Positions 3,568 through 51,818 are shown, numbered from the stretch's first letter. The stretch is DNA of 54,067 nt from a virus (IMGVR_UViG_3300022178_002236:1-54067); one strand, 5' to 3'. Numbers and translations are program-made. The notes: generated by a model not told the origin, from the letters alone.

Positions 3568-6075
3568 ATGGCTATTGAAAAAAAACTTGAAGAGAGCGAA
3601 ATCGAATTAATGGACCCTGACACCAACGCTCAAGAAGTTGAGGTTGCGATTGTCAATCCTGAAGCAGTTGCCATTTCCACCGAAGAGGGTGGCGTAATTA
3701 TTGATTTCGATCCTCAGACTGAAGACATACTACCGCAGGATCACGATTCTAACCTCGCAGAGCACATGGAGGAAGACGAGCTTCGGTCACTTGCCTCTAA
3801 TCTTATTGGAGATTTTGAATCTGACAAAGACTCGCGTTCTGATTGGGCGAAAACATATGTCGAGGGGTTAGACCTACTCGGTTTGAACATTGATGACAGG
3901 ACAACACCTTGGCCGGGTGCTTGTGGTGTGTATCATCCAATTCTTACTGAAGCGATTGTGCGCTTTCAGTCTCAGGCGATTATGGAAGTGTTTCCAGCCT
4001 CAGGTCCGGTAAAAACAAAAATTCTCGGCAAGATGACCGATGAGAAAGAAAAACAGTCCCATCGAGTGCGGGACTACATGAATTTTCTTTTGACAGACAA
4101 AATGACTGAGTACAGGCCAGAGATGGAGCAGTTACTCTTCAGCCTCCCTCTAGCCGGTTCTGCGTTCAAAAAAGTTTATTACGATGCTTCTATGGGGCGC
4201 ATATGTACGTCTTTCGTTCCCGCAGAAGATTTTGTTGTTAGCTACGGGGCGTCTGATCTTCTGACCGCAGAGCGGTACACGCACATCATGCGGAAGACAT
4301 CAAACGAGATCAGGAAGTTGCAGGTAGCGGGTCTTTACCGAGAGATGAAGATTGGCAACGCTCCTGACTTTGATACTGACATTCAGGAAAAGTACGACGA
4401 GCTAGAGGGAGAAAGCTCAACAGGAAGCTCAGATACCCGTCATCAGGTTCTTGAAATTCATGTCGATCTTGACCTTTCGGGGTATGAGGATGTTGGGGAA
4501 GATGGAGAACCAACTGAAATCGCGCTTCCTTACGTTGTAACTATTCTTCGATCAAATAATGAAATCCTGTCCATTCGCCGCAACTGGTACGAGGATGACG
4601 AGCAGAAAACCAAGCGTATGCACTTTGTGCATTATCAGTATATGCCGGGTCTTGGGTTCTACGGCTTTGGTCTAATCCATTTAATTGGAGGTATCGCAAA
4701 AAGTGCAACATCTCTCATGCGTCAGCTTATTGACGCTGGTACTCTTGCAAACCTTCCGGGCGGCCTGAAGTCTCGCGGACTCAGAATCAAAGGCGACGAT
4801 ACGCCAATTATGCCGGGTGAGTTCCGTGACGTTGACGTTCCCGGCGGTGCCATTAAGGACAACATAACTTTCCTTCCGTACAAAGAACCCAGTAATGTCC
4901 TGCACCAGATGCTTGGTGAGCTTGTCGAAGAGGGTCGCCGTTTCGCATCTCTGACCGATCTAAAGCTGGCAGACATGAAGCAAGATGCTCCTGTCGGAAC
5001 AACGCTTGCTCTTATTGAGCGGTCAATGAAAGTTATGACTGCAATTCAGGCCCGACTTCATGCTTCTATGAAGCGTGAGTTTGTGCTCATTTCTGATCTT
5101 GTTCATGACTTTGGGGCAGACCAGAACTATGAGTACGAGTCAGATGATGACGTAGTTAAAGCGGAGGATTTTGACGGTAGGTTGGACATTATTCCTGTCA
5201 GCGATCCCAACGCATCCACCATGAGCCAGAGGATTATGCAGTATCAGGCTGCGTTGCAGCTATCTCAGCAAGCGCCACAGATGTATGATCTTCCTGAGCT
5301 TCATCGCCAGATGCTTGATGTGTTGGGCATCCAAGACGCGGATTCAATTATTCCCTTGTCCGAGGATGCTACCCCGCGTGATCCAGTCTCTGAGAATATG
5401 GACGTATTGAACGGCAAACCACTTAAAGCGTTCTCTTATCAAGATCACGATTCTCATATTCAAATTCATATGAATGCAATTCAAGACCCGAAGATACAAC
5501 AGCTTGTTGGTCAAAGCCCTATGGCGGGAACGATACAGGCAGCTATGGCAGCCCACATTCAAGAGCATCTCGGCTACAAGTATCGCAGAGAAATCGAGAA
5601 AGAGCTTGGTGTAGAATTGCCGCCTGAGAACGAGCCGCTTCCAGAGGATGTTGAAGTCAAGTTGTCTCGTCTTGTGGCTGAAGCGTCTGATCGACTGTTC
5701 CGCAAAGATGTTATGGAAGAGCAAATGCGAGAGAATCAGGAAAAACTTAATGATCCTGTATTCCAGTTGCAGCAGCAAGAGCTTCAGCTTGAAGCGGCTG
5801 ATCTTGAGCGTAAGGCTCAGACCGATACAGCCCGGATGGTAGCTAAGATGAAAGAAGCTCAGATGCGTCAGGAGACGGAGCTTATCAGAATCAAGTCTCA
5901 AGAAAGAATGGAAGGTGCGCGTTTAGGCGTTCAAATAGCGCAAGAATCTCTTGAGTCTCAGCAGCGTAAGGAAGACGCCAGCAAAAAACAGGTTCTGGAT
6001 ACTGCAAAAATTCTTGCTGATGTCGGAAAAAACTTGATGGGGCCGAATAATAGCAATACAAATAACTCAGGTTAA
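3568..6075 (+). CDS. Portal protein with long coiled-coil C-terminus
   Basis: Directly after terL; PWPGACGVYHP, GSAFKKVYYD, PGLGFYGFG; 835 aa. Confidence 0.9.
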   Translation: MAIEKKLEESEIELMDPDTNAQEVEVAIVNPEAVAISTEEGGVIIDFDPQTEDILPQDHDSNLAEHMEEDELRSLASNLIGDFESDKDSRSDWAKTYVEGLDLLGLNIDDRTTPWPGACGVYHPILTEAIVRFQSQAIMEVFPASGPVKTKILGKMTDEKEKQSHRVRDYMNFLLTDKMTEYRPEMEQLLFSLPLAGSAFKKVYYDASMGRICTSFVPAEDFVVSYGASDLLTAERYTHIMRKTSNEIRKLQVAGLYREMKIGNAPDFDTDIQEKYDELEGESSTGSSDTRHQVLEIHVDLDLSGYEDVGEDGEPTEIALPYVVTILRSNNEILSIRRNWYEDDEQKTKRMHFVHYQYMPGLGFYGFGLIHLIGGIAKSATSLMRQLIDAGTLANLPGGLKSRGLRIKGDDTPIMPGEFRDVDVPGGAIKDNITFLPYKEPSNVLHQMLGELVEEGRRFASLTDLKLADMKQDAPVGTTLALIERSMKVMTAIQARLHASMKREFVLISDLVHDFGADQNYEYESDDDVVKAEDFDGRLDIIPVSDPNASTMSQRIMQYQAALQLSQQAPQMYDLPELHRQMLDVLGIQDADSIIPLSEDATPRDPVSENMDVLNGKPLKAFSYQDHDSHIQIHMNAIQDPKIQQLVGQSPMAGTIQAAMAAHIQEHLGYKYRREIEKELGVELPPENEPLPEDVEVKLSRLVAEASDRLFRKDVMEEQMRENQEKLNDPVFQLQQQELQLEAADLERKAQTDTARMVAKMKEAQMRQETELIRIKSQERMEGARLGVQIAQESLESQQRKEDASKKQVLDTAKILADVGKNLMGPNNSNTNNSG

Positions 6076-6087
6076 AAATAACCTGAG
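6066..6087. repeat. Dispersed palindrome copy 1 (CTCAGGTTA-AAAA-TAACCTGAG)
   Basis: Perfect 9-bp arms; overlaps the portal stop and the next RBS. Confidence 0.85.
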
Positions 6088-6095
6088 GGTGCGAA

Positions 6096-6302
6096 TTGGC
6101 GATCATTGAAAATGTTTATGAGGTTTTTCAAAAAAACCTTAGGTCTTCGATGAATGAGAAGGCCGACTTCTTGGCTACCGGTGGTGCGCGTAGCTTTGAA
6201 GAGTACCACAAGATTGTGGGCGTAATAGAGGGACTTGCCTTGGCAGAGAGAGAGCTTCTTGATCTGTTTGAGGCCTTGCGTAAAGGAGAAGAAGATGAGT
6301 AA
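6096..6302 (+). CDS. Hypothetical head-module protein
   Basis: TTG start with GAGGGT; YHKIVGVIEGLALAE; lies between portal and GroES-like gene. Confidence 0.7.
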   Translation: MAIIENVYEVFQKNLRSSMNEKADFLATGGARSFEEYHKIVGVIEGLALAERELLDLFEALRKGEEDE

Positions 6303-6669
6303 AGAAAAAGTTGTAGAACTGGACGAGGCCCGAAAAGCAAAGGCTTTGCCAGAGCCTGTTGGCTACAGAATTTTAATTGCGATACCAGAAAAAGAACAGA
6401 AAACCGAAGGCGGTGTTTTGTTGCCTGAAGATACGCGAAAGCGTGAAGAGGCAGCAAGCATGGTCGGGATGGTTTTGAAAATAGGGCCTGACGCTTATAA
6501 AGATACCGAAAGGTTTCCGAACGGCCCTTGGTGCAAGGAGGGTGACTTTATTCTCATGCGCTCTTACTCAGGAACACGAATAGAAATTCATGGGCAAGAG
6601 TTCAGAGTTATAAATGATGACTCCGTTGAGGCTGTTGTTGAAGACCCAAGGGGGATCAAAAAGGTATGA
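6295..6669 (+). CDS. groES: GroES/Cpn10-like co-chaperonin
   Basis: PEPVGYRILI, KTEGGVLLP mobile loop, CKEGDFIL, YSGT, INDDSVEAVV; start moved to ATG 6295 (AAGGAG). Confidence 0.88.
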   Translation: MSKEKVVELDEARKAKALPEPVGYRILIAIPEKEQKTEGGVLLPEDTRKREEAASMVGMVLKIGPDAYKDTERFPNGPWCKEGDFILMRSYSGTRIEIHGQEFRVINDDSVEAVVEDPRGIKKV

Positions 6670-8094: not shown

Positions 8095-8138
8095 TCTTTT
8101 TGGTTTAATCTTTGTCTTCTTTGGAAGGAGAACACGGT

Positions 8139-11868: not shown

Positions 11869-12407
11869 ACACAAGGCATCAGCCCGTCTTTGAAGACTTG
11901 AGAAGTTGGTCTCGTGAAGTTCTTGATCTTCCAAACCCTCACCTGTCTGGGTTAAAGGCTTGCCCTTACGCTGAGAGCGCTTGGAAAGGTAAACGAGTCG
12001 ATGTCTGGGTTGGTGAAGGTCCTGTTGATCTAAAAGCCGCTATAAGAGATTTTGATCCAAAATCTTTTGACATGGCTATTTGGGTTAATTTTAACCTGAG
12101 CAGGGTCGATCTTTGGGATAGATGGGTTCAGATATGGAATAAAGAGAACTTTTCCACTGACATCTATCTTATGTTATTTCACCCAGATTTTCCGCCGTCA
12201 GAGGAGAGCGAGGCTTTTTTAACGGACAATGATTGGGAGTCTGATTTAGACGAAGATTACATGATGGTCTTCATCCAGCCCTTGAGCACATTAAACAAAG
12301 CAAGTCTAGCGCTTGAGGAGATTGGGTATTATAATCATTTTGCAGATCATCTTTATGAAACTCTGGTCTTAGATAGAAGGAGATTAAGTTATGGCAATGG
12401 GTCGTAA
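11865..12407 (+). CDS. DUF1415-like protein
   Basis: CPYA and LFHPDF motifs. Confidence 0.55.
   Translation: MNTRHQPVFEDLRSWSREVLDLPNPHLSGLKACPYAESAWKGKRVDVWVGEGPVDLKAAIRDFDPKSFDMAIWVNFNLSRVDLWDRWVQIWNKENFSTDIYLMLFHPDFPPSEESEAFLTDNDWESDLDEDYMMVFIQPLSTLNKASLALEEIGYYNHFADHLYETLVLDRRRLSYGNGS
12082..12097. repeat. Dispersed palindrome copy 2 (GGGTTA-ATTT-TAACCT)
   Basis: Inside CDS (WVNFNL). Confidence 0.8.
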
Positions 12408-23027: not shown

Positions 23028-25352
23028 ATGCTACAGAAATTGACCTTCAAGCCCGGAATAAATAAAGACCTTACCCGATACGCTGGTGAGGGCAGTTGGT
23101 TTGACTGTGATAAAGTTAGATTTGTAAATGGACTACCTCAAAAAATGGGTGGTTGGGTTAAAATTAACTCGACAGCATTTTCTGGGGTTTGTCGCTCTCT
23201 GTTTAACTGGTCAACTCTTAGCGGCCAAGACTTAATGGGTATAGGAACCTCGAAAAAGTTAATACTTGAAGAGGGTGGCGGAATACATAATGTGACGCCT
23301 TTGAGAATATCAAATTTCACCCTTGGCTCTAACCCATTCCAGACCTTAACTTCTGGCACAGGAACTTTGAATGTTACTCATACTGGGCATGGCGCTGCGG
23401 TAGGAGACACTGTAATTTTTGCTGCGGCTGCCACTTTTGATGGAATTACGGCTGCTCAAATAAATACTGCTCATGTCATTACGCAAATAATTGACTCAAA
23501 CAATTATTACATAGTGACAACCGGTTCGTCGTCTTCTGGCTCTACGGCTGGGGGTGGCTCGTCTGTTTTAGCTTCTTACGAAATTACGGTTGGCGCGGCG
23601 ACGAGTGATTCAGGAGGTCTTGGTTGGGGCGCAGGTCTTTTTGGCGGTACTGTTTCTGGTAAAACAACAACAACGCTCTCTGGTGGTATTAACGATTCAG
23701 CCACAACTATTCCTCTGACAAGCGCTACGGGCTTTGACACGGCTTCGACAACGCTATCAGCGATCTTGCAAATCGGTGACGGGGAAATGAGTGTTGCGTC
23801 GGTCTCCGGCCTTCCTTGGATTGGTATAGTAAAGATTGGTACTGAGCAGATTAAGTACGAGAACGTAGATACCACTAACAATAAAATTTCTTCTTTAACT
23901 CGTGGTTTTAACGGGACAACGGAGGCAGCGCATTCTTCAAGCGCTTCGGTTACTTATGTCGGAACCATCGTGATTGACAACGAGATTATTACATACACTG
24001 GCGTCTCGACTAATGACCTGACAAGTGCTGTGCGCGGTCAGCTTGGCACTGATAATGTTGCTCACGATTCCGGTGCAACAGTTGTCGAATCAAACGAGTT
24101 TGTTGGTTGGGGTTCGGGGGTGCCGGTGGAGACAGGCACAACCGAGACTATAACCGTTCGTCTATGGCGTCAGGACAACTTTGGTGAAGATTTGTTAGCC
24201 AACATTTACGGTGGCGGTATTTATTACTGGGACGCAAGCTCGGGTTTCGGTAACAGGGCAGTGGAGCTTTCTAGTCTTTCCGGTTCCTCCGGTTGCCCTA
24301 CAGCAGCGCGTGTTATCCTTGTTTCAGACAATGACAGGCATGTTGTTGCCCTTGGCACCACCGATCTATCGAGTGGAGGATTTGATCCTCTTTTAATACG
24401 TTGGGGTGATCAGGAGTCCTTAACTCAGTGGACCCCCTCGACGACAAATACAGCCGGTGATCTTAGAATCAATAATGGCTCAGAGATTATTACTGCGCTT
24501 GAGAACAGACAAGAAATACTCGTTTGGACAGACAGAAGCCTTCATTCTCTAAGATTTGTAGGCTCACCCTTTATTTTTGGTCAAACCCTTCTTTCTCAAA
24601 ATGTCACAATTATAGGCCCAAATGCCCATGTGGCAGTCGGGGATACGGCGTTTTGGATGGGTACAAATAATTTCTATGCATACGATGGTCGTGTAACGTC
24701 AATACCGTGCTCTGTACGCAATTTTGTTTTCCAAAACATGAATTTCGGTCAACGCAATAAGTTCTTTGCGGGCAGCAATTACGAGTTTGGGGAAGTTATA
24801 TGGTTCTACGTTTCGAGTGACGCGACAGAAATTGATAAGTACGTCATATACAATTTTGTTGAAAAGGCTTGGTATACAGGTTCTCTTGAAAGAACAGCTT
24901 GGATAGATCGAAGCCAGCGAGAGTTTCCGAATGCCGCAAGCTCTGATGGATTCTTGTACTCGCACGATAATGGATTTGATGATGGGAGTCAGAATCCTCC
25001 AGCACCCATAACAGCTTTTATAGAAAGTTCTGATTTTGAAATTGGAGACGGGGATAGGCTTCAGTTTGCCTCTAGAGTAATTCCCGATTTGAGCTTTAAC
25101 GGATCGTCTGCTTCGGCCCCTGCCGCAACCTTTTCTTTTCTCCCGCGTAATTTTCCCGGCCAATCTTTCGGCACATCGTCGTCATCTACGGTAACCGCTA
25201 GTCAGACTGTTGATGTAGAGCAGTTTACAGAACAGGCATTTATAAGACTCAGAGGCAGAGAGATGTCGGTTAAAGTGCAGTCAACCGAAGAGGGCGTGTT
25301 TTGGCGCTTGGGTGCTCCGCGCATAGATATTCGACCTGATGGGAGAAGATAG
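23028..25352 (+). CDS. Tail nozzle / DNA stabilisation protein (P22 gp10 / T7 gp12-like)
   Basis: KPGINKD, DKVRF, W.QDNFGEDL, IRWGDQE, WRLGAPRIDIRPDGRR. Confidence 0.8.
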   Translation: MLQKLTFKPGINKDLTRYAGEGSWFDCDKVRFVNGLPQKMGGWVKINSTAFSGVCRSLFNWSTLSGQDLMGIGTSKKLILEEGGGIHNVTPLRISNFTLGSNPFQTLTSGTGTLNVTHTGHGAAVGDTVIFAAAATFDGITAAQINTAHVITQIIDSNNYYIVTTGSSSSGSTAGGGSSVLASYEITVGAATSDSGGLGWGAGLFGGTVSGKTTTTLSGGINDSATTIPLTSATGFDTASTTLSAILQIGDGEMSVASVSGLPWIGIVKIGTEQIKYENVDTTNNKISSLTRGFNGTTEAAHSSSASVTYVGTIVIDNEIITYTGVSTNDLTSAVRGQLGTDNVAHDSGATVVESNEFVGWGSGVPVETGTTETITVRLWRQDNFGEDLLANIYGGGIYYWDASSGFGNRAVELSSLSGSSGCPTAARVILVSDNDRHVVALGTTDLSSGGFDPLLIRWGDQESLTQWTPSTTNTAGDLRINNGSEIITALENRQEILVWTDRSLHSLRFVGSPFIFGQTLLSQNVTIIGPNAHVAVGDTAFWMGTNNFYAYDGRVTSIPCSVRNFVFQNMNFGQRNKFFAGSNYEFGEVIWFYVSSDATEIDKYVIYNFVEKAWYTGSLERTAWIDRSQREFPNAASSDGFLYSHDNGFDDGSQNPPAPITAFIESSDFEIGDGDRLQFASRVIPDLSFNGSSASAPAATFSFLPRNFPGQSFGTSSSSTVTASQTVDVEQFTEQAFIRLRGREMSVKVQSTEEGVFWRLGAPRIDIRPDGRR
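23155..23170. repeat. Dispersed palindrome copy 3 (GGGTTA-AAAT-TAACTC, 1 mismatch)
   Basis: Inside CDS (WVKINS). Confidence 0.6.
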
Positions 25353-25660: not shown

Positions 25661-25670
25661 GAGTTTTTTG

Positions 25671-27854
25671 ATGGCTGTCATATATCCTCAAGTCGATCAA
25701 GCATCTAATCCGCCAATTACCATCACCTCTCAGAAAATGGTGGGGACCACGCCTGACGGCTCAGAGTACACCCGTGCTGGGCTTGAAAGTTTTTTTGATG
25801 CTGCCGAAAAACAAGGCGGCATCGGGGGAACTCTTTTGAGTATGCCCTCGGTCCAACAACAAATGACAGATCAAATTTTTGGTCCCGAAGAATTAGTAGA
25901 ATACAACCCCACCCCCCGCGTCCCCATTACGCCACCATCAAGCTATGAGCCGGGAATGGACCCGATGTTCAATTACTTTGAGGGGCAGAAAGCGCCAGAT
26001 GCGGTTTTAATGGAAGGTGGCGGCCTTGTGGGTGAGGCCAAGCGCGTACAGCAGCAGGGTCGTAACGGCGACAGTATGCTCGTTCACATGAATCCTGATG
26101 AATTTAACGCTATGACAGCCATCGGCGGTCTTGGCGGCTTAGTTGAGAACGGCGCAACCATCAACCCGGAAACGGGCTTGCCTGAGATGTTCAACTTTAA
26201 GGACATCCTTCCGACTGTTATTGGTGTCGCTGGCGCTGCATTTGGTCTTCCGACTTGGGCAGTTGCCTTGGGTACCGGGGCGACAACGGCTATTACCACG
26301 GGCGACATTGGTAAGGGTATCCTTGCTGGTCTTGGCTCTTACGCCTTAGGCAGCTTGTTTGAAGGCGTTGGCGCTAGTGGTGTCGCTGATCCCAGTGTGG
26401 CGGCGGCTGGGGCTGATCCGGGCGGAAGTCTTTTGGCTAGTCAGCCCGCCATGAATGCTGCCTCCTCTACAGCTAACCTTCCAAATGCGCCTGACCTTAT
26501 TGCTGGTGGAATGCCTGTCTCTGACGCTTCTATCATCAATGCCCCTAGCATTTACGAAAGAGCGGCAGCAGCTAAGGGCTTTACCCCTCAGGCTGTTTCC
26601 CCAATCACACCCCCGGCCCCGTCCGGCCCCATTAACTTTACTGGTACCGGAGGGTTTCCCTCTACAAACTTCCCGGCACGTGGTTTTACTGGTGACATTT
26701 CGGCGATACAGGCAGGAAATGAGGCGGCTTTTGGTCTAGGTAGCGGGGCAACAGGTGCGGCTCAAAATGCTGCTTTTTCGAGCGCTTACAAGGATGCTGC
26801 TTTCGGAAACGCACCTTTTACCACGGCTTTCGATTCCGCTGCTACCGGCCCCAGTAAACTAGAATTGTTTGGTGAGGGGATATCCCAAATAGGGCAGCCC
26901 GGTGGTGTTAGTTATCTTGACGCAGCCACAAAAGGTTTGGGTGGCCTTGGTGCTACGGCTGCCGGTGCAGGTCTCTTTGATGAAGAGCCTTACAACTACG
27001 CTGGTTTTAGTGGTTCTAGGCGCAGATATAACACTGAGCCTATGGCTCCTCTCAGTCGCACACGCTTAACCCCCGGTGCTGACTACCGCCCCGGATTTGA
27101 CCCTGCCTTTAGCTACTTCGCACAGGATGGGAAGCGTGGTGAGCTAGACCCGTCAATGGGTGGCGTTATGAGTAATCCTGCTAGAAATGCTGTTATGCAG
27201 AGCGCACAGGAAATTGCATCTAATGCGACACCTCAGCCTCAAATGATGGCTCCGAGACCCGCAATGTACAGCCCTAACGCAGCGGCGAGGGCAGTGCTTC
27301 CGATGACGAGAATGGCTAATGGTGGGGTTCCTGAAGAGCAGGTGATGGCAGGTTTAATGGATGTAGCCTCCGAAGAGGTTAAAAATAACCTAGACGAGCG
27401 TATGTCCGTGCCAGCCCAAGATTCAGAGCCTCAAAGTCCAGAAGAGCGCATTGTCTACGATAATGCGATGCTTGCTGTTCAGGGTGTCCTTGAAGATGAG
27501 GCCGCTCAAGATGCGGTGTCAGAATTTATTGAGACCTTTGGTTTCGAGGCATATCAAGCTCTTGTTGATGCAGTGAATACTCCTCGTGAAGAGGGCGGCG
27601 TTATAAAGCCCGCTGATGGTCAAAGTTCTGTAAAGGATGGGGCTATCCAAGGCGAGGACGTTATCGCTGGGATGATTGTTGACCCGGAAACCGGCGAAGA
27701 AAGTGCCAATCTGCGTATTGGTGAGAATGAGTATGTGGAACCTGCGGAAAGCCTTACGCGACGGGCTATGGCAGCGGGTCTGCCGCCTACGCCGAAAAAT
27801 GGCGCAATGGTAAGAAGTGCTGAGGAGGATCAGCTTCGGATGGCTTATGGCTGA
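25671..27854 (+). CDS. Internal virion / ejection protein
   Basis: GRNGDSMLVHMNPDE...INPETGLPE motif; Gly/Ala-rich hydrophobic segments; AGGAG RBS. Confidence 0.65.
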   Translation: MAVIYPQVDQASNPPITITSQKMVGTTPDGSEYTRAGLESFFDAAEKQGGIGGTLLSMPSVQQQMTDQIFGPEELVEYNPTPRVPITPPSSYEPGMDPMFNYFEGQKAPDAVLMEGGGLVGEAKRVQQQGRNGDSMLVHMNPDEFNAMTAIGGLGGLVENGATINPETGLPEMFNFKDILPTVIGVAGAAFGLPTWAVALGTGATTAITTGDIGKGILAGLGSYALGSLFEGVGASGVADPSVAAAGADPGGSLLASQPAMNAASSTANLPNAPDLIAGGMPVSDASIINAPSIYERAAAAKGFTPQAVSPITPPAPSGPINFTGTGGFPSTNFPARGFTGDISAIQAGNEAAFGLGSGATGAAQNAAFSSAYKDAAFGNAPFTTAFDSAATGPSKLELFGEGISQIGQPGGVSYLDAATKGLGGLGATAAGAGLFDEEPYNYAGFSGSRRRYNTEPMAPLSRTRLTPGADYRPGFDPAFSYFAQDGKRGELDPSMGGVMSNPARNAVMQSAQEIASNATPQPQMMAPRPAMYSPNAAARAVLPMTRMANGGVPEEQVMAGLMDVASEEVKNNLDERMSVPAQDSEPQSPEERIVYDNAMLAVQGVLEDEAAQDAVSEFIETFGFEAYQALVDAVNTPREEGGVIKPADGQSSVKDGAIQGEDVIAGMIVDPETGEESANLRIGENEYVEPAESLTRRAMAAGLPPTPKNGAMVRSAEEDQLRMAYG
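27376..27391. repeat. Dispersed palindrome copy 4 (AGGTTA-AAAA-TAACCT)
   Basis: Inside CDS (EVKNNL). Confidence 0.85.
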
Positions 27855-31712: not shown

Positions 31713-34700
31713 ATGGATGTAACGCTTCCAAACGGGCGTGTTATTAGCGGCGTCCCTGACGGCATGACTCAGGATAGTCTTCGGGAAATTGCGATCAAAA
31801 ATGGCCTCGCTACCGCCGAAGACTTTGCCTCCGTACAGCCAGCCCAGCCCGCAGGACAGCCAACGGCTGCTCAGTCTGAAGAGTTTGAGGGCAACTACTT
31901 CCTTACTGGTATAGGGCGCGGCGTTGATGTTCTACAGGAAGGTTATGGCTCTGCCATAGAGGGCTTTGGTGGTGTTTTTGACCTTCCGGGTGTTGAGCAA
32001 TATGGCGCTGATGTTGTTGCTGCTCAGAAAAAACAGTTAGAGGAAACCTCTGCTGGTGCTTTGCAGACTAAAGATATTAAGGAGAAGGGCCTCCTTAGCT
32101 ATATATCGGCGACTTTGGGCGCTCAGGTTCCGCAGCTTGGTAGCACTCTTGGCGGTGCCTATCTTGGCGGCAAGGTCGGCGGAGGGATCGGCGCTGCGTT
32201 TGGCGGCGTTGGCGCTATTCCCGGAGCACTTATTGGCAGCGTTGTCGGCGGTATAGCGGCCAACCTTCCGTTTTTCTACGGATCAAACCGAGAAGCTCAG
32301 AAGCAGGAGATTGCTAAGGGTAACCGCGTGGAAGTAAGCGAGAGCGCAGCTATTTTAGCAGCGGGTCCCCAAGCCCTTCTTGATTATATAGCAGACCGAT
32401 TCCTTATTGGCGGACTAACTCCGAAGGCCATCAGGCAGGGTGGTCTCTTTACAAGAGGCATAAAGGGGGGAACCGCTGGCGTAGTGACTGAAGTTCCAAC
32501 TGAAATTGGGCAGCAAGTTCTTCAGCGCCTTCAAGCTGGGCAGGACCTTACTAGCGATGAGGCTATGGATGAGTATTTTGAGGTCGCGGTTGCCGCTGGT
32601 CTCGTCGGTGGCACAGTCAGAGGAGGAACAAGTATATTTCAAGGCCGCGTAGAGGATGATGCTCCGCCGCCACCTAAAACTGAAGATGAGCTTGCAGCCG
32701 ATGCTGCTGCCGTTTTCAACGAAGATACTGAGCCTCTTGCGCTTCCTGCGCCCGAAGAAACCCCTCTTCTTCCTGATTTCTCCAACGAAGGGGTCCCGAT
32801 TGTCGATCCAGATGTTGATATTGGAAGTCTTGTTGATGGCGTTGTTTCTAATTTCTCTTCTGACCTGCCTCTTTCTTTTAATAAAGGGAAGGTCGTCGTA
32901 ACTGACGATGTTGGAACACCAGCCTCTTACGAGGTCGCATCTAGCTCTGATGGTATATTTGTTGTTTCTAAACAGGGTGTCCGGGTTTCCCCCAATTTCT
33001 CTTCTACGGAACAGGCGGCTGAATTTCGTGACCGGCTGAATGTGTCCGTTAACGAGATGATGGCTGTTCAGGATGAAGTCGAAACACAGAGACAGGCTAC
33101 AGAGGCTGTAAAGCGGGCCAAACTTGAGGAAACGGGCGCAACACTGGAAGCGGCGAGAGCAACCCTATCCTCGCCTTCTATTGATTTCTCCTCTATTCCG
33201 GGGGACGCAGCCCAAGCGATAAATGTTAAGAGGACCCAGACTGGGCGCAGTACACTTGGCGCTCAAGACACAGTAACCCTTGAGGAACTCAGTGATAACA
33301 ATGTCTCTCAGGAGGTAATCGACGGTCTGTTACCCTCCTCCGAAGCGGCCACCGTCGAAGATGTGCGTTCTGCTGCCGCGTCTAAAAACATTTTGGTTGA
33401 AGACGCTGGCTTTGAGCGCTTTGCCCGCAGAAATACTGGCTCCGCAAACATAGAGAGAATGTCGCCTACTCAGCTTGGCTACATGATCGACGCTATCGAG
33501 GGGCTGCCAGCGATACCCGGTGAAACCGCACAGGCACTGCCTGTTATCCAAACACCCGAATTTACAGGCCCTCAGTACAGCGCAACCATATCTCTTGCTA
33601 AACGCAAGGGCGAGGAAGGTGTTCTAAAGTCTGAGGTTTCCAAGAACATCGATATGAAACGCGGTGCTCCCACGCAATCCCTGATACAGGCTGGCTTGGA
33701 TCGTGGCGATCTTGTGCCGCATCCCACAAAAAAGAATAGGTGGGTCAGTAGGCAGTTCTACGAAGAGAGACTTAATAGACCCCGTACACCTCTAGAGAGA
33801 GGCGAACAGGTAGAGGCAGAGGCCCGCGCAAGGGAAGAGCAAGCGCAGCCAGAAATGCCAGCCCGTGAGACCCTTGGCCCCGGCATTATCGTAGAAACCA
33901 CGCGGGAAGAGGGTGATACGCGCTCTATCCCTGAACGTAGCAGGGAATTCCAAGAACGTCTTGGAGAGACCACGCCCACGCCCGAGGCCCTATCCAGACG
34001 CGAGGAGATACAGCAATCCCTCACTGATGAGCTTAACAGGTTTGCTGCTAGTCCCGCTGGTAGGGCGGCAAAACTGGATGCCAGCAAGATCGGCGTTGAG
34101 ATTGTTGATTCAGTAACGACTGGGGCGGGGACAAGGGCAGAGGGCCAGCTACTCGCTGACGCTGACAGCGGTAAGGTAATTATTCAACTAGCTTTGGACA
34201 CGGCTCAAGAGGGCGCAGCAACTGACGCACAAGTTAAAAATAACCTCAGAGATGTCTTCAATCACGAAGTGGTGCACGCTCTAAAAGCGCTAGGCGTTAT
34301 CAACGAAGCTGATATGGCATCACTCGTTAAGTACTCAAAGAACGCCCGTATAAAAGGCTCGAAGAAAACGATTTATCAAGAGATCGTAGAGAACTATACG
34401 GAAAAGAATGTCGGACGCCAACTCTCTAAAGAAGAGCTTGAAGAAGAGGCGGTTGCCGATGCTTTCCGTTACTGGGCTGCTGGTCAACTCAAGGTCACCG
34501 GCAAGCCTAAGAGCATATTCGACCGCATTGTGCGCTTCTTCCGCAGCATTGGTTCCGGCCTAAGCAACGCTGAAATAACATCTGCCGAGCAAATCTTTAA
34601 TAATCTACGCGCACCGATTGGTGCACGGTCTGCTCCCGTTGCTCCTGCTAACAGAGAAGCCGCAAGACAGGCAGAGGCGGCTGCTGCTGCCGAAGGCATG

Positions 34701-41047: not shown

Positions 41048-41048
41048 T

Positions 41049-41228: not shown

Positions 41229-41246
41229 CCAAAATAGGAGGGGAAT

Positions 41247-41734: not shown

Positions 41735-41736
41735 TC

Positions 41737-41752
41737 AGGTTAAAAATAACCT
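41737..41752. repeat. Dispersed palindrome copy 6 (AGGTTA-AAAA-TAACCT)
   Basis: Fills the intergenic gap and abuts ATG 41753. Confidence 0.85.
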
Positions 41753-43505: not shown

Positions 43506-43562
43506 GTCGTGCGATTTCCTTTCAAATCGTATGTCACCTCATGACTTTGGGGAGGCGTCTAG

Positions 43563-43775
43563 TCAACGCCTCCCCTTTATCTTGTGAACGTCGATCTCAT
43601 ATCCCAGTTCACTGAACCATTTTTCGACTGTGCTAAAGGCAACATTCGTCTTGCCATTTTCAAAATTAGCTATTGTGCTGGCGCTAGTGCCTGTAAGAGA
43701 AGCAAGAACCTCTCTCGACAAAGGGGCTTCTTTTCGCAGAACCTGAAGTTCTGTGCAAAGCCAGTGGATGTTCAT
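43563..43775 (-). CDS. XRE-family HTH regulator
   Basis: LSREVLA...TIANFENG...LGY. Confidence 0.8.
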   Translation of the reverse strand: MNIHWLCTELQVLRKEAPLSREVLASLTGTSASTIANFENGKTNVAFSTVEKWFSELGYEIDVHKIKGRR

Positions 43776-43957
43776 TTCTTTTCGCTTTCTTCTTCTTCAA
43801 CGTAACGCTCTGCTGCCTCCCTCACCACAGAGGCTGCTGTAACATTTTGCTTGGAGGCGATATCCCTAATCCGATTTATGAGACGGAAGGGAAAAACAAT
43901 GTTCCAAGTCTTACTTGGTTCCGTCATTCGACGAGGTCGGTTCAGTTGTCCCGCCAT
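43772..43957 (-). CDS. Ribbon-helix-helix (CopG-like) regulator
   Basis: KTWNIVFP...A...VTAASVVREAAERYV; ATG 43957 with GGAGG. Confidence 0.7.
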   Translation of the reverse strand: MAGQLNRPRRMTEPSKTWNIVFPFRLINRIRDIASKQNVTAASVVREAAERYVEEEESEKK

Positions 43958-44255
43958 TGTCTGCCTCCATAATCTTTTCATATATGTCCTCAGCTACTGC
44001 TGCATACCCAGCTATATCAATGTGTGAGTCAAGTTTGGGTCTATTCATGCACCGGGCAACTTTTACCAAGCCCATCATCATTGCAACATCGTAGGCAGTT
44101 AGAGGTTTGCCAGACCACTCTCTTCCGGTAATCCATGTATTCCACAGATTAGCTATGCGGGTATGATTAACGAGGGAATCCCCGTAATCTTTGTGCCTGT
44201 CTCCGCATACGTTTTCTATTGCGCCCTCAAGCACATCTAATTTCTTTTCATGCAT
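43911..44255 (-). CDS. DUF6378-like protein
   Basis: DR..DYG...N..RIA.LW, VAMMMGLVKVAR, DSHIDIAGYAA. Confidence 0.8.
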   Translation of the reverse strand: MHEKKLDVLEGAIENVCGDRHKDYGDSLVNHTRIANLWNTWITGREWSGKPLTAYDVAMMMGLVKVARCMNRPKLDSHIDIAGYAAVAEDIYEKIMEADNGGTTEPTSSNDGTK

Positions 44256-44930: not shown

Positions 44931-45264
44931 CGTTTTGAACCTCCGGTTCAGGCGTTGGTTTCTTGTACGGCTCCTGTAGCCAGACCGAAAGATACTGACC
45001 GCTTTTGCCCTGCCAGACCTTCCCGGCAATCTCAAGTTTCGCAACCTGCTGACCTTCTGTTTGCCTTCTTTTAGACATCCCTGTCTCTTTGTTTTTGAAG
45101 GCCTCAACGAGGTACCGTGCCGCATCTTTGGTGATCTCAATATCACCGCTGATATCAGGCTGCTTCTCGTTGTGGTTGTCAGCGTGGCTGATGTTGATCG
45201 ACATGGAGTCGATTTTGCGTTGATTGCGGAAGATATTACCGCCGCCGAAATTAGACTTCGCCAT
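44902..45264 (-). CDS. ssb: Single-stranded DNA-binding protein (phage type)
   Basis: QPDISG, YLSV, acidic DDLDDEIPF tail; next to sak. Confidence 0.7.
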   Translation of the reverse strand: MAKSNFGGGNIFRNQRKIDSMSINISHADNHNEKQPDISGDIEITKDAARYLVEAFKNKETGMSKRRQTEGQQVAKLEIAGKVWQGKSGQYLSVWLQEPYKKPTPEPEVQNDDLDDEIPF

Positions 45265-46157
45265 TAATTTTCTCCTTCTTCGTATGAATATACCTCACCG
45301 CTCTGCGCGGCTTTCTTTGCTTCCTTAAAGAACCCCATAACTCGCTTGTGAATTTCTGGAGCACTCTCTGCGATCATTCCAATCGCGTCCTTGTTGTGCT
45401 TGTAGAAGGCCTCGACGGCTTTAACGCACTCGTCGTTAGTGTCGTAGACAGGCTCACCGGAGAAACCTTCCTCGGGATTAGCACCGGCCCGATCACCAAG
45501 TGACGGCATGAACGTCGAGAAAACCTTCTCAACAATGTCGAACGCATCGCTATCGCCGTTGATCGTGGCGAACTGTTCGCCCTCCTCCATCTCAACAATA
45601 TCAGCATGATGGTCGAGCATCTTTCCTCGGAAACCATCTGTTGATGGGTTAATTTTAACCTCTGGCTCCTCTTTCTTAACCTTCTTCGGTTTAGCCTTGG
45701 GCTTCTCTTCGATCTTCTCTTCGATCTCTTCCGGCTCTTCCTCAGCAATCAACTCGTCGGCTGCGCCTTCGTAAAGGAGCAAACCAAACCCGTGGTAAGC
45801 AATCGTTTTCACAAGCCCTCTCTGTAAGGCTGTGTTGACTGCCATCGGATCGGGTGTCTGCACCGCCTTGTTGCGGTAATCTAGAACCGGAAAGGTCTCG
45901 GTTATTGAATCGCCATCAATCGTGACGGTGACCTTAACGTATGCAAAACCCTTCTTGTCCATCGCGTAGGGTATGGAATAACTCGGCTCCCCCACTGTAA
46001 ACCAATGCTTTTCAAAAGAAGCATCTGGGTGCCTCTTTTTGATCTGGGACCAAGCATATGACCACTTTAAATAGTCAAACCCATTCTTCTTTTCGATCTT
46101 GTCCGCAGGGATTTTAGCCTCAAAGAGGCTCTCAAAATTACCCTTCTTGGTTGTCAT
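45264..46157 (-). CDS. sak: Sak / Rad52-like ssDNA annealing protein (DUF1071)
   Basis: IEKKNGFDYLKWSYAW, PVLDYRNK, NTALQRGLVKTIA.HGFG. Confidence 0.85.
   Translation of the reverse strand: MTTKKGNFESLFEAKIPADKIEKKNGFDYLKWSYAWSQIKKRHPDASFEKHWFTVGEPSYSIPYAMDKKGFAYVKVTVTIDGDSITETFPVLDYRNKAVQTPDPMAVNTALQRGLVKTIAYHGFGLLLYEGAADELIAEEEPEEIEEKIEEKPKAKPKKVKKEEPEVKINPSTDGFRGKMLDHHADIVEMEEGEQFATINGDSDAFDIVEKVFSTFMPSLGDRAGANPEEGFSGEPVYDTNDECVKAVEAFYKHNKDAIGMIAESAPEIHKRVMGFFKEAKKAAQSGEVYSYEEGEN
45646..45661. repeat. Dispersed palindrome copy 7 (GGGTTA-ATTT-TAACCT)
   Basis: Inside sak linker (EVKINP). Confidence 0.8.
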
Positions 46158-47019: not shown

Positions 47020-47026
47020 GTGAGCG

Positions 47027-47055
47027 AACATACAGAGGGAAATAACTAATGGCAA
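47027..47055 (-). promoter_or_regulatory. Candidate promoter giving a leaderless exonuclease mRNA
   Basis: TTGCCA-17 nt-TATGTT ending 7 nt before the ATG; no SD. Confidence 0.45.
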
Positions 47056-47447
47056 TAGATTTATTAGATACCGATAAATTGTGGCTCACGGATTGGTTAT
47101 TTAGTTGTGAGATTTTAGGTGAGCCAGCCAGTAAGGCTAACTCCCGCAAGATTGTTAAGTTTGGAAACAGGCCAGCTTCGATCAAGTCTGACAAGGCGAG
47201 GGCCTACGAGAAAACATTTGCCAGTCAATGCAGGGTTCTAGATGAATTGATCGAAGATGATGTCTTGCTCTGGTGCAAAATTTGGTACGCCTCCCGCCGA
47301 CCTGATCTTGATGAAAGCCTGATCATGGATTTGTTGCAGGACCGCGCAATCAAGAACGACCGGCAGATTAAAGCGAAGGTTGTTTTACATGCTCTGGACA
47401 AGGAAAACCCACGAGCAGAAATAAGGTTGGCGAAAATTCCTGTTTGA
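47049..47447 (+). CDS. rusA: RusA-like Holliday junction resolvase
   Basis: GEPASKANSR, RPDLDE, DLLQ, NDRQI, ENPRAEI. Confidence 0.88.
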   Translation: MAIDLLDTDKLWLTDWLFSCEILGEPASKANSRKIVKFGNRPASIKSDKARAYEKTFASQCRVLDELIEDDVLLWCKIWYASRRPDLDESLIMDLLQDRAIKNDRQIKAKVVLHALDKENPRAEIRLAKIPV

Positions 47448-47490
47448 CGATTTGTTAAACCACCACTATGACAGAAGTGGAGGTGACAAA

Positions 47491-49212: not shown

Positions 49213-49233
49213 GAGGGGGATTGCTCCCCCTCC
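49212..49233. terminator. Hairpin between convergent genes
   Basis: GGAGGGGGA-TTGC-TCCCCCTCC (GCAA loop on minus strand). Confidence 0.7.
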
Positions 49234-49239
49234 CTTCGA

Positions 49240-49431
49240 TTAGTTGTCAGGCTTCGCTTCTGCTGGGATGCAATTTGCGTCCTGATGCATCGGCACATGG
49301 TTCACCTCGCCAGTGACGTTATTGACCAACGCTTTGGCTTTGTATGACCTACCGTTCTCGTCAATCAAGGTGATCGGGACTTCAACGATCATCTTGCTTT
49401 GGCTCCGGGGCTGTTCCATTAGAACCTCCAT
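49240..49431 (-). CDS. Hypothetical protein
   Basis: ORF track; internal ATG 49419 has GGAGG and may be the true start. Confidence 0.55.
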   Translation of the reverse strand: MEVLMEQPRSQSKMIVEVPITLIDENGRSYKAKALVNNVTGEVNHVPMHQDANCIPAEAKPDN

Positions 49432-49558
49432 TAGATCGGATGTGCGCCTGTTTGATCAGAAACTGAATCTGAGACGATACGTTCCTGACCTCTTTGTCGC
49501 ACATATCCCTCAGAATTCCGTGAAGATCATCGGGAAGATTGATGTGTAGTCTCTGCAT
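49382..49558 (-). CDS. Arc-like ribbon-helix-helix protein, 58 aa; not in ORF track
   Basis: MQRLHINLPDDLHGILRDMCDKEVRNVSSQIQFLIKQ; AAGGAG RBS. Confidence 0.7.
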   Translation of the reverse strand: MQRLHINLPDDLHGILRDMCDKEVRNVSSQIQFLIKQAHIRSNGGSNGTAPEPKQDDR

Positions 49559-49694
49559 TTAAGTTCTCCTTTCTACGGGCCACCTCAGCGACCTTTTGTT
49601 TCCAGATGTTTTTAACCTCTGGGTCTGTTGCTTCAGCCTGTGCGCGGCATAAGCTCTCGATTACTTCGTCAGCGATAACTCCAATTCTCTTCAT
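49527..49694 (-). CDS. Hypothetical protein, 55 aa; not in ORF track
   Basis: MKRIGVIADEVIESLCRAQAEATDPEVKNIWKQK; TGATG coupling. Confidence 0.6.
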   Translation of the reverse strand: MKRIGVIADEVIESLCRAQAEATDPEVKNIWKQKVAEVARRKENLNAETTHQSSR

Positions 49695-49882
49695 CAGTTA
49701 GTTCCCCAAAAAAGTGTCGTTGCGATAACGATACCAACCACTGGTAAGGTTAAAGTTAACCCGACAATGGTTGTGACAACTTCGCCTTTAGTGTCTAAGT
49801 TGCTGGTTGATGTCCCAACAAAAAAGACAAAAAGACTAAGTGTCACAATCGCGCCCAACAAATAACATAGGTGCCATGTCAT
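49694..49882 (-). CDS. Small two-TM membrane protein
   Basis: Two hydrophobic segments; GGGAGAG RBS. Confidence 0.6.
   Translation of the reverse strand: MTWHLCYLLGAIVTLSLFVFFVGTSTSNLDTKGEVVTTIVGLTLTLPVVGIVIATTLFWGTN
49747..49762. repeat. Dispersed palindrome copy 8 (AGGTTA-AAGT-TAACCC)
   Basis: Inside CDS (GLTLTL). Confidence 0.75.
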
Positions 49883-49883
49883 G

Positions 49884-50051
49884 TCACTCTCCCATTCTGT
49901 CTATGGCCCGTGTCTCGGGCGTTTCTAGATCAACGGCTTTCACCGCTCTTTCGGTTTTGCAGTCGTCGCAATACCAAAAGTCTGTTGTGTCTTGAGTCAT
50001 GATGTACTCGTCAAGACCGCCGCATTTGCGGCATCTTTTGAATTTCTCCAT
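49884..50051 (-). CDS. Zn-ribbon protein, 55 aa; not in ORF track
   Basis: CRKC...WYCDDC; AGGAGGTGA RBS. Confidence 0.7.
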   Translation of the reverse strand: MEKFKRCRKCGGLDEYIMTQDTTDFWYCDDCKTERAVKAVDLETPETRAIDRMGE

Positions 50052-50054
50052 ATG

Positions 50055-51254
50055 TCACCTCCTGTGAGTTAGCGTGTAGTCTTTCGTAATGACGCCCAGT
50101 TTGGGGTCGCCTCGCAGATGGGAAGAAACCCAAACGCGCTTTCCGCTCTTTCGGTAACGCCGCCAGTGACCGCGCACACTGTGTTGACGGCGACTGCTCT
50201 CATTCATGCCACCAAAACCATTTGGCATGACCGTGACCCCATGAAATTTTGGCAGGTCAATGGATACTTCAATGTGAGAATTGCCACGATGGAACTTGCC
50301 ATGACGGTAGCGGCGCTTGCTGCCAGCTTCTTTCTGCTCCTTTACAATCCAGTCGTAGTTCAGCATCGCAAAAACGGTGATCAAAAACCGGGAGTCACCG
50401 TTGGTCATGTCAGACCCAACAGCCCTTAATGACTTGGCAACTTCTGAGTCCCACTGACCGCTTTGTGTATTAACAAAAAGGTCAACGCCCGGACCTTGAA
50501 TAAGGCGAAGATGGTTGCATAGCGTATTGAGCGCGTGGTCTGTTTCGGTAGGCAGAGAGTTCAGATTCCTCCTGCACCACCAGTCCCCAAGCGACTCAAT
50601 TACGGCGGCGCAGTCTGCTTTTCGAGTTAACTCGACTTGCTCGTCAGACAGTTTAGCTGGCGACAAGGAGAAAAAATCAGCCAGAAAATCTCTGTGATTT
50701 TCTAAAGAGAACCCAGACCCTTTCTCCTCGTCGAACTTCGCGAAATAAAGCGCAAGAGGCGACGTAAATACTTTGCCGCTAAGTCCCCCGTGCAGATCAT
50801 CAAAGTTAGCAAACGGCGTCCCTATGAAGGCCTCGCCTTCATAGCCCGTGTGAGGGGCCTCTTCAAAAAGGTAGCCTACGCTCGGAGGAATGTTGTGCCA
50901 ATCAACCTTCGATGTCTCACCAATCTCAGGACAAACCCTTTCGAGCGTCTTCTGTCGAGCAACTTCGTTCCATTCGATCCACATGAGATCGTTGGGGGGG
51001 GACATGAACTTGTATTGATCAACTAATTCTTCCCCGTCAGCCCGCATCGACGCCTCCATTGCGAAGTCCACAAAATCGTCGTCGAGAACGTAACGGGTAG
51101 CCAGCCTCATATCTTTACGCATACTGGAGATTCTTTGTTGGCGCTGCCGCCTGAACTGGGTAGTCTCCGGCGAGAGGCCTTTCATATAAAAACCGCGCTT
51201 AGGATTATTAAGCGCGGCGATAACATCGTCAGCAAAACTATATCGCTCAGTCAT
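50055..51254 (-). CDS. Hypothetical early protein with C-terminal HxVRGHWR motif
   Basis: RRQHSVRGHWRR...VWVSSHLRGDPKLG; AAGGAG RBS. Confidence 0.75.
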   Translation of the reverse strand: MTERYSFADDVIAALNNPKRGFYMKGLSPETTQFRRQRQQRISSMRKDMRLATRYVLDDDFVDFAMEASMRADGEELVDQYKFMSPPNDLMWIEWNEVARQKTLERVCPEIGETSKVDWHNIPPSVGYLFEEAPHTGYEGEAFIGTPFANFDDLHGGLSGKVFTSPLALYFAKFDEEKGSGFSLENHRDFLADFFSLSPAKLSDEQVELTRKADCAAVIESLGDWWCRRNLNSLPTETDHALNTLCNHLRLIQGPGVDLFVNTQSGQWDSEVAKSLRAVGSDMTNGDSRFLITVFAMLNYDWIVKEQKEAGSKRRYRHGKFHRGNSHIEVSIDLPKFHGVTVMPNGFGGMNESSRRQHSVRGHWRRYRKSGKRVWVSSHLRGDPKLGVITKDYTLTHRR

Positions 51255-51274
51255 AGCGATCTCCTTTCATTTTG

Positions 51275-51658
51275 TTAGGCAGGTTCGTCGTCACACCCTT
51301 CGTCTATTTCGCCCTCAGTTAACGGAACATAAAATTCACCATCACAAAGTTCTTCTAGACGTATCTCTCTTATGTCGGCCTCTGTGACCCAATCTTCTTG
51401 AGCAACGTCAGAAGAGCAACCCGGACAGGTCAGCATTGACCAGTCAAGATGGTACACCTCGATCTCTACTTCGAGGCACTCAGGACAATGCAATATGTGA
51501 ATGTCACGTTCGTCACCGGCATTGATATACACGGCACAGATCGGGCTACCTGATTTTGTCTCACCGGCTGGCTTCACTTTCCAGCCGCGCTTGCACAAGT
51601 CATTGACAACATCAACGCTGTCGGCGTCGAAGAATTTCAAGTACGTTAGATTGCCCAT
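51275..51658 (-). CDS. Hypothetical protein with Zn ribbon
   Basis: HCPEC...TCPGC; AAGGAG RBS. Confidence 0.7.
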   Translation of the reverse strand: MGNLTYLKFFDADSVDVVNDLCKRGWKVKPAGETKSGSPICAVYINAGDERDIHILHCPECLEVEIEVYHLDWSMLTCPGCSSDVAQEDWVTEADIREIRLEELCDGEFYVPLTEGEIDEGCDDEPA

Positions 51659-51802
51659 CTTTTATCTCCTTTCTAATTTCTCCAGATGATTTGCATTCAT
51701 CGCATTGGACAATTTGCTTGCGAAATTTGTCACGCAAAAATCCATTTCCCTTGCAGACTGGGCATACGATACTATCACGCATCTACTTCTCCAAACATTG
51801 AC

Positions 51803-51818
51803 GGGTTAATTTTAACCC
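51803..51818. repeat. Dispersed palindrome copy 9 (GGGTTA-ATTT-TAACCC)
   Basis: Intergenic, perfect 6-bp arms. Confidence 0.85.

Follow-up and report, generated by a model that had tools for sequence, protein, structure and literature searches.

A dispersed GGTTA-N4-TAACC palindrome in a clade of uncultivated marine tailed phages: probable binding sites for a phage regulator

What keeps one short palindrome at positions scattered through a phage genome, inside genes as well as between them? The question is raised by IMGVR_UViG_3300022178_002236:1-54067, a single contig of 54,067 bp that is the whole record for the genome of a tailed phage and is referred to here as the window. The original prediction, made from this sequence alone, described seven exact and two one-mismatch copies of GGTTA-N4-TAACC and proposed that they form a network of sites for a dimeric DNA-binding protein. 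The same seven exact cores were recovered (Table 1; the earlier coordinates refer to the R that lies one base upstream of the core start), against a mean of 0.01 in 100 dinucleotide-preserving shuffles, none of which reached seven. When every 5-mer arm was scanned de novo with spacers of 0-12 nucleotides (nt), GGTTA with N4 came first, with seven copies at 134-fold over composition, the next unrelated palindromes having three copies; it is the only enriched 5-Nx-5 palindrome of the window. Comparison with related phages, presented below, suggests that the dispersed set probably consists of binding sites for a phage regulator.

The motif is longer than its core. Allowing up to one mismatch yielded ten matches in the window. 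Two of the additional matches, at 23156 (TAACT) and 34232 (AGTTA), depart from the core at the outermost base only and bring the total to nine sites, while the third, at 8972 (GGCTAGGTATAACC), is taken as a chance match because its mismatch is internal and its spacer is G-rich, not A/T-rich. A relaxed core, GTTAWWWWTAAC, is matched eight times versus 0.01 expected. The A/T-rich spacers noted originally were borne out across sites, that of site 49748 containing one G. Exact sites from the window and its relatives define the full consensus TCR-GGTTAA-WW-TTAACC-YGA, a 7-2-7 design in which the centres of GGTTA and TAACC are 9 bp apart and position -1 is A or G in all exact sites, never C or T. 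Spacing is 2-11 kb, as described originally, with a minimum gap of 2056 nt, and is mildly more even than random (P ~0.04, one-sided). When a viral collection was scanned with one 14-mer variant, at least 116 single, unrelated matches were found among the matches listed.

By the open reading frame (ORF) map, six of the nine copies lie within coding sequences, as predicted (12083, 23156, 27377, 34232, 45647 and 49748), and three at gene boundaries (6070, 41738 and 51804). Over the window and its relatives, about half of the sites are located at gene boundaries, overlapping a stop codon or lying 1-44 nt before a start, and the TAA of the motif is the stop codon of both the portal and the small terminase (TerS) genes; the remaining sites are intragenic and occupy a Val-x-x-Asn frame wherever codons were read. 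Peptide contexts had been described as different. They do differ, but less than was implied, since all five sites in coding sequences whose codons were read share a single frame, x-Val-x-x-Asn-x. The codon-preserving shuffle that had been suggested as a check gave a clear result: in 1000 permutations of synonymous codons within genes, counts ranged from 2 to 6 (mean 2.8) and none reached seven, the floor of 2-3 being set by sites that lie outside the permuted codons and do not change. In relatives with 65-82% nt identity, seven of the nine (6070, 12083, 27377, 34232, 41738, 45647 and 49748) have orthologous sites, the junction carrying site 51804 being outside the relatives compared. Codons overlapping the core are identical to the window codon in 75 of 90 comparisons in which the amino acid is the same, versus 391 of 901 across the 40 codons flanking it on either side, an odds ratio of 6.5 pooled over four sites in coding sequences, for which P is only indicative because the sequences are related. 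At site 45647 indels make the protein alignment unreliable. Positional conservation in diverged relatives and frozen synonymous positions thus confirm, at the level of sequence comparison, the proposal that the constraint appears to act on DNA and not on protein.

Conservation can be followed from site to site; relatives are identified by G and L numbers. The orthologue of site 6070 is exact in L119, G005, G004 and L121-L123 and has the TAACT form in G001-G003, the same form that is found in these three types at site 12083, where the codons GTT AAT TTT AAC are unchanged in 10 of 10 orthologues shown while neighbouring codons vary. Site 27377 is exact in G001, G002, G003 and G004. The position corresponding to the variant at 34232 is exact in G001 and G002 even though the preceding amino acid varies (Q, E or A). 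Before the hydroxylase start, site 41738 is matched by an exact site in G001, G008, L331, L333 and L334, and by none in the motif-less L336 and L337. Site 45647, an island of identity within an indel-rich stretch, is exact in G001 and is present by position in G009, G008/L227, L330 and L346. The interval of site 49748 also carries a site in L332 (1733) and L334 (1766), and none in L227/L228. The near-site at 23156 was not conserved in any of the four lineages compared (G004, G001, G002 and G003).

The motif is lineage-specific. Searching IMG/VR with the portal yielded 80 loci. At portal identities of at least 82%, 33 exact sites were present in 13 of 15 loci; none was found in 18 loci (156 kb) at 67-76% identity or in the 47 loci (451 kb) that do not exceed 63%. 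The only alternative palindrome repeated in the 67-76% clade represents one orthologous position within the coding sequence of the portal. Ten whole related records (5-47 kb), some of which represent the same phage type sampled twice, contain 6, 3, 4, 6, 6, 1, 9, 4, 1 and 2 sites, with 0-1 for a reversed-pattern control in the same records. Among early-region relatives found through the RHH (ribbon-helix-helix)-like gene, L330-L334 carry one to three sites each; in L335-L338 (27 kb), which are more distant, there is no match even when one mismatch is allowed. G011, a syntenic genome of 58,094 bp that was judged complete, likewise has no site at up to one mismatch. Searches with the 399-aa (amino acid) protein, the primase or the RHH protein alone added few or no new lineages.

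Absence of the motif from G011-type phages is accompanied by a palindrome of their own. GAGTCAC-YR-GTGACTC has the same 7-2-7 layout, and its half-site shares G-T and A with the GGTTAA site. This 16-bp palindrome occurs exactly twice, on the TerS stop codon and at the junction of the MoxR-like gene with gene g53124, and in the motif clade a GGTTAA site is present at both positions. The positions are fixed and the sequence has changed, as a co-evolving pair of protein and site would produce. G011 also contains four copies of TTGAC-N2-GTCAA (L340-L342: 26826, 34427, 41093 and 52314), ~65-fold over composition, which may be its own dispersed palindrome.

A host protein, either nucleoid-associated or a global regulator, could in principle bind the sites if the clade had adapted to a particular host. 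The abrupt appearance of the motif in one clade is what a host switch could give, and four of the five binders suggested originally are disfavoured (see below). A co-evolving phage pair is nevertheless the simpler account of a sister clade that has a related palindrome with the same architecture at the same two positions. A search of 185,579 species genomes with an 18-mer, CAGGTTAAWWTTAACCTG, produced 81 single matches over many phyla, near a hand-estimated chance level, with no genome having several; the three Psychrobacter and two Psychromonas matches inspected lie in larger hairpins, those of Psychrobacter with terminator-like A/T runs. A portal search of the same genomes revealed no prophage relative. 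Binding by a host protein is regarded as distinctly unlikely, and the results speak neither for nor against the host-factor decoys that the original prediction had also listed.

The arms could alternatively act in RNA, as a GGUUA-loop-UAACC hairpin placed before start codons for a translational repressor, a nuclease or a stabilising factor. The sites between cistrons, many of them with TGA and purine-rich sequence after them, are compatible with this, and predicted folding energies of the seven exact sites range from -4.8 to -17.7 kcal/mol, three of the seven folding better than all 200 shuffles. Overall, however, the hairpins are weak and uneven, the other four are ordinary relative to shuffles, one site has no hairpin in its minimum-energy fold, Rfam gave no match, and conserved sites deep in long genes are ill-suited to the control of initiation. 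The flanks are more informative. Positions -1 and +14 are Watson-Crick paired in 25 of 53 distinct contexts compared with 27.7 expected for independent halves, and offsets 2-4 show the same independence. The core arms are invariant, compensatory changes were never seen, and the spacer flips between AAAA and ATTT at the portal-stop site 6070 in different lineages, so that the loop would be A-rich in one orthologue and U-rich in another. Because the two flanks vary independently, the element behaves as a duplex-DNA site for a symmetric protein and not as a hairpin; a role in RNA is given little credence.

Combined, these results support the predicted network of sites for a symmetric, dimeric protein: positions are kept, half-site flanks are independent, and the sister clade carries its palindrome at the same positions. 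Our tentative reading, which we put somewhat short of an even chance in its full form, is that the palindrome constitutes a duplex-DNA operator set for a symmetric DNA-binding protein encoded by the phage, acting mostly in transcription, with an RHH protein as the best candidate. From these patterns we infer that a protein would bind the sites, which protein it would be and that transcription would be affected.

The leading phage-encoded candidate is the 58-aa RHH protein at 49382-49558, followed by TerS. RHH proteins contact DNA with alternate polar residues of a strand. The N-terminal strand of this protein reads R-x-H-x-N in four motif-bearing types (the window, L227/L228, L332/L334 and L346) and that of its homologue in the G011 clade R-x-H-x-I. 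The RHH protein had no sequence match in the PDB. It is the one member of the binder list in the original prediction to survive, the LexA-like winged helix-turn-helix (wHTH) protein, the XRE protein, the tyrosine recombinase and the RHH-like protein at 43772 all being disfavoured. The recognition helix of the wHTH protein differs among motif-bearing lineages, and its gene is broken in L119 and is not beside TerL (large terminase) in the G004 type. Homologues of XRE and of the recombinase are both absent from the motif-bearing G001, L332, L333 and L334 types, and the recombinase has homologues in the motif-less L335-L337. The strand KTWNIVFP of the RHH-like protein at 43772 is unchanged in the motif-less L335-L338. 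In L119 (7273-7368) the wHTH gene contains an in-frame stop and its similarity is lost after ~32 residues, which represents either a pseudogene or an assembly error.

TerS was invisible to the author of the original prediction because the contig lacks the TerS region. No TerS homologue was found in the window by homology search, and its ends share no repeat. In the closest relative, G006 (G006/L245; 82-88% nt identity), window positions 52479-54067 are linked to 6-559 by 4.9 kb encoding a MoxR-like ATPase, two unknown genes and TerS. The window genome is thus incomplete and not circularly closed, with ~4.9 kb missing between 54067 and 1; in run X1 one contig continues 1101 nt beyond 54067. This stretch of G006 contains one exact site and four near-sites, three with outermost-base mismatches and one with two mismatches, and in other lineages the region is the most site-dense, with up to six sites in 5.7 kb (L229). 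We estimate that about five further sites lie in the missing 4.9 kb, for a total of roughly 14. In every lineage sampled (the G004, G005, G003/L227, G007, L119 and G006 types) a site precedes the start of terS by 1-44 nt and a second overlaps or closely follows its stop, some of these sites being in one-mismatch form.

This arrangement raises the alternative that the palindrome is the recognition site of TerS, the pair around terS initiating packaging and the dispersed copies serving as extra terminase-loading sites. Bracketing of terS in every sampled lineage is what would be expected, the palindrome of the G011 clade also lies on the terS stop, and the N-terminal helix-turn-helix region of TerS hardly varies within the motif clade and has several substitutions in motif-less clades. 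The assignment as TerS is itself supported by a Pfam match to Terminase_2 that falls below the family cut-off (E = 0.001) and by similarity to small terminases in the PDB (Pam5, E = 2e-4). However, copies occur in every operon at 2-11 kb intervals instead of in a single recognition region per genome; the pac or cos recognition regions of lambda, SPP1 and P22 are single loci, and TerS proteins of this family, which form rings, as a rule recognise direct repeats in phase and not a perfect palindrome. We know of no packaging role for conserved sites inside distant structural genes. In addition, the covariation of TerS with the motif amounts to one phylogenetic event and is common to the RHH protein. 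Recognition by TerS is considered unlikely, and it is rather improbable that TerS reads a dozen or more dispersed, selectively kept loading sites, some of them preserved within structural genes through synonymous codons. If it did, headful packaging would be initiated at multiple sites or TerS would have a second, regulatory job, and the sister clade would represent an ancestral two-site state with a different specificity.

Returning to the operator reading, the binder protein and its site would have co-evolved, and the sites of the motif clade would have spread throughout the genome from a small number of positions between cistrons. The RHH protein may occupy the two GGTTAA half-sites as a dimer of dimers. 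Its action would most likely be transcriptional. A TTGCnT-17-TAC(A/G)TT element is located 5-6 nt before the site upstream of TerS in five of five lineage types, the site being exact in three types and carrying one mismatch in G006 and two in G003. One site would thereby coincide with the start point of a conserved promoter-like element before the operon of the small terminase and late genes. The other sites occur in every operon, either within long genes or in the gaps that separate cistrons, and protein bound there could block or pause RNA polymerase, or alternatively pair sites by looping.

Several observations weigh against this reading. The TTGCnT-17-TAC(A/G)TT element is inferred to be a promoter by reading of an alignment and not from a mapped start, and sigma-70-like promoter matches in 41000-54067 number 11, compared with 10.0 in shuffles. 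The correlation of the RHH strand with the motif is a single evolutionary split, across which TerS changes as well, and it excludes the G004, G005 and G007 types, whose contigs stop short of the RHH region. No site lies near the RHH gene in the G001/G008 type or in G011. Silencing of the kind seen in lysogeny would not be general, because some motif-bearing lineages are without integrase, and the reason for keeping sites inside structural genes is at present a supposition.

Other functions were considered. That the motif might be a promoter was rejected, promoter-like matches being no more frequent than in shuffles. Partition sites, which the original prediction had also proposed, received no support because neither ParB nor ParA was found among the ORFs scanned; specifically, no ParB-like Pfam match was obtained in 20 ORFs of 42669-54065, 10 further window ORFs and 10 gap-region ORFs of G005, most late structural ORFs lying outside the Pfam scans and being covered by PHROGs at most. 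A methyltransferase-like gene (174-185 aa, with CAGNGA and NPPW motifs by eye and no Pfam match) stands beside terS in several relatives, and an explanation based on a methyltransferase was set aside since this gene (174 aa, in the G001, G003, G004 and G005 types) has no homologue in the window and no room in L119. Just upstream of the promoter-like element at terS, two or three copies of a CACATT-containing element are present (L218 ~4540-4600 and equivalents in L119, G004, G003 and G006), which may be the site of a second regulator.

The palindromes could also be short linkers at module boundaries through which genes are shuffled by Sak/exonuclease recombination of the phage, comparable to the PeSL cassettes found in T4-type phages. 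Edges of nucleotide homology to the G001 type lie at 27377, where BLASTN similarity starts 20 nt upstream of the site, and at 45647; another edge is found at the holin-hydroxylase boundary (41738), and the hydroxylase gene is elsewhere in the G004-type genome. Sites 6070 and 12083, in contrast, lie inside long collinear homology, 14-20 bp is short for annealing-based exchange, and selection on each phage for intragenic linkers is hard to justify. In the contigs of four runs no site coincides with a joint; a single joint was seen, at 39824-40227, and it lies between unrelated direct repeats. A linker function is very unlikely. Site-specific recombination was rejected on the same absence of joints in these contigs and because the recombinase does not track the motif.

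Table 1. Palindromic sites, genes and other features (window coordinates unless another record is named)
Feature	Position	Strand	Remarks
Site 1	6070..6083		Exact; first TAA is the portal stop codon; 12 nt before next gene (6096)
Site 2	12083..12096		Exact; in 180-aa structural gene 11865-12407, peptide W-V-N-F-N-L
Near-site	23156..23169		TAACT; near start of virion protein gene 23028-25352; status uncertain
Site 3	27377..27390		Exact; in gene 25668-27854, peptide E-V-K-N-N-L
Site 4	34232..34245		AGTTA variant; in 2964-aa gene 31713-40607
Site 5	41738..41751		Exact; between holin stop (41734) and hydroxylase ATG (41753), ending one base before the ATG
Site 6	45647..45660		Exact; in Sak gene 45264-46157 (-), linker after Sak domain
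Site 7	49748..49761		Exact; between zinc-ribbon (49884-50051) and RHH (49382-49558) genes, in putative ORF 49694-49882
Site 8	51804..51817		Exact; between DUF2201 gene stop (51844) and next minus-strand gene start (51782)
Contig end	54060..54067		Junction to the ~4.9 kb present in G006
LexA-N-terminal-domain-like wHTH, 78 aa	1020..1256	+	Pfam LexA_DNA_bind, E = 7e-13
TerL (large terminase)	2031-3521	+	Late arm
Portal	3568-6075	+	Late arm
GroES-like gene		+	Late arm
Major capsid	8748-9656	+	Late arm
180-aa structural gene	11865-12407	+	Holds site 12083
Virion protein gene	23028-25352	+	Holds near-site 23156
Gene	25668-27854	+	Holds site 27377
2964-aa protein	31713-40607	+	Late arm; holds site 34232
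Virion and tail proteins, lysozyme, holin		+	Late arm; holin stop 41734
Asp/Asn beta-hydroxylase	41753-42451	+	Pfam, E = 2e-44
Tyrosine recombinase	42669-43505	-	Pfam
XRE helix-turn-helix protein	43563-43775	-	Pfam
RHH-like protein	43772..43981	-	Weak PHROG Arc-like match
Sak single-strand annealing protein	45264-46157	-	Early
RHH protein, 58 aa	49382..49558	-	Pfam RHH_5, E = 3.7e-8, above cut-off
Zinc-ribbon gene	49884-50051		Early region
PD-(D/E)XK nuclease, RusA, primase-helicase, 399-aa protein, DUF2201 protein			Further early genes
GAGTCAC palindrome	L340 (G011) 631-646, 4886-4901; L188 3179, 6885		
Methyltransferase-like gene	L218 (G005) 5363-5887; G004 1385-1942; G001 46066-46590		

The late arm of the window is on the plus strand and the early genes extend from the tyrosine recombinase onward. 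A megablast search of 24 kb against 50,697 phage records gave no match at the DNA level. TerL is 54-60% identical to the proteins of DSL-LC04, of the Pelagibacter phages HTVC027P and HTVC023P and of phage 023Pt_psg01, and this protein is the sole tie to the HTVC023P/027P-type and DSL-LC04 phages. The motif is not described in the main texts, supplements apart, of the literature searched in full text on GGTTAA/TTAACC palindromes and on HTVC023P-type phages, and the main text of PMC9599517 contains no mention of palindrome, promoter, inverted repeat, LexA, small terminase or methyltransferase.

Further features of this genome were recorded in passing. Seventeen runs (X1-X17), spanning 12 or more studies with marine, freshwater or aquatic labels and dates of 2012-2018, have contigs that contain 99-100% of the sampled words of window 44068-54067, and contigs of the RNA runs X18 and X19 cover parts of 34068-54067. 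For X1-X17 this is an unusually wide spread for one near-identical phage sequence, and these runs may share a campaign or include the source sample. Three tandem 30-nt repeats (85-100% alike) occur at 12420-12526, between genes 11865-12407 and 12536-13225, and would give a K/M/R/G-rich peptide if translated, and five tandem 12-nt units (CTCCCGTGGTTC-like) lie at 30585-30644 within the 805-aa gene 29285-31702. In run X11 one contig skips 402 nt (39824-40227) of the 2964-aa gene near 22-nt direct repeats at 39864 and 40265, a sign that the giant protein may vary in length. The Asp/Asn beta-hydroxylase gene follows the holin in the window and the G001 type and is just upstream of TerL in the G004 type (2536-3246); it looks like a moved cargo gene.

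How does the set compare with known systems? Its nearest counterparts in function are the stoperators of Cluster A mycobacteriophages and the KorB/KorA operators of the IncP plasmid RK2. Stoperators are oriented with transcription. They are described as asymmetric sites of a monomeric two-domain repressor (PMC9283540), spread across a genome of ~50 kb, at promoters and far from them, and proposed to halt RNA polymerase (PMC9283540, PMC6550527). The present sites are similar in being many dispersed copies of one sequence, often at gene boundaries (nine in 54 kb; one to nine per related record), and differ in being perfect palindromes with symmetric flank preferences, with spacers that flip at orthologues and with copies kept inside coding sequences. 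No L5 gp71-like repressor turned up in Pfam and PHROG scans, which found wHTH, XRE and RHH proteins only and included no search directed at gp71.

The operators of the IncP plasmid RK2 number about a dozen, are palindromes of ~13 bp on a replicon of ~60 kb, and lie in some cases at promoters and in others kilobases from them. KorB and KorA are reported to act at such dispersed operators in global silencing (PMC11790492). In the phage, as with KorB, about ten or more copies of a palindromic operator are dispersed over one replicon; the phage set differs in that KorB is a CTPase clamp of the ParB family, whereas no ParB-like domain was present in the scanned ORFs, and in that the replicon is a phage and not a plasmid. 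In the linear plasmid-prophage N15, palindromic centromere sites served by SopA/SopB partition are scattered, including in late regions. Copies are scattered through the phage genome here as well; unlike N15, no ParA/ParB-type genes were found in the ORFs scanned, nor was any sign of a plasmid lifestyle.

RHH operators are known from P22 Arc and Mnt, CopG and MetJ. A small RHH protein is encoded here too, and the site, with short inverted half-sites spaced by roughly one helical turn, would suit a dimer of dimers. Known RHH repressors act at one or a few promoters, and to our knowledge a set of 9-14 sites with intragenic members has not been described. Thus, the general form fits and the scale is unusual.

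The closest likeness in sequence is to the palindrome bound by the MqsA antitoxin of P. putida, given as 5'-TTAACCT-N3-AGGTTAA-3' with a critical ACCT/AGGT core (PMC5422877). The 7-bp half-site AGGTTAA is identical. The MqsA half-sites, however, are everted, with a 3-nt spacer. MqsA was rejected as the binder, the only XRE protein of the window giving generic XRE matches in the PDB and none to MqsA and being absent from the motif-bearing G001 type, and the likeness is taken as coincidental. The CapS palindromes were also rejected as a match, their sequences being unrelated (PMC13373217).

Dispersed operator networks are known from few replicons, among them the Cluster A mycobacteriophages and IncP plasmids, and the set described here would be a symmetric version in an uncultivated marine phage clade. 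It is unusual in that intragenic sites are kept by selection on synonymous positions. Annotators should be aware that the motif constrains codon choice in structural genes of these phages, and that this contig is without the terminase small-subunit region. With two sites of a related palindrome in the sister clade and roughly 14 in the motif clade, the two lineages form a before-and-after pair, and the short list of candidate binders would open the origin and expansion of a genome-wide site set to direct test.

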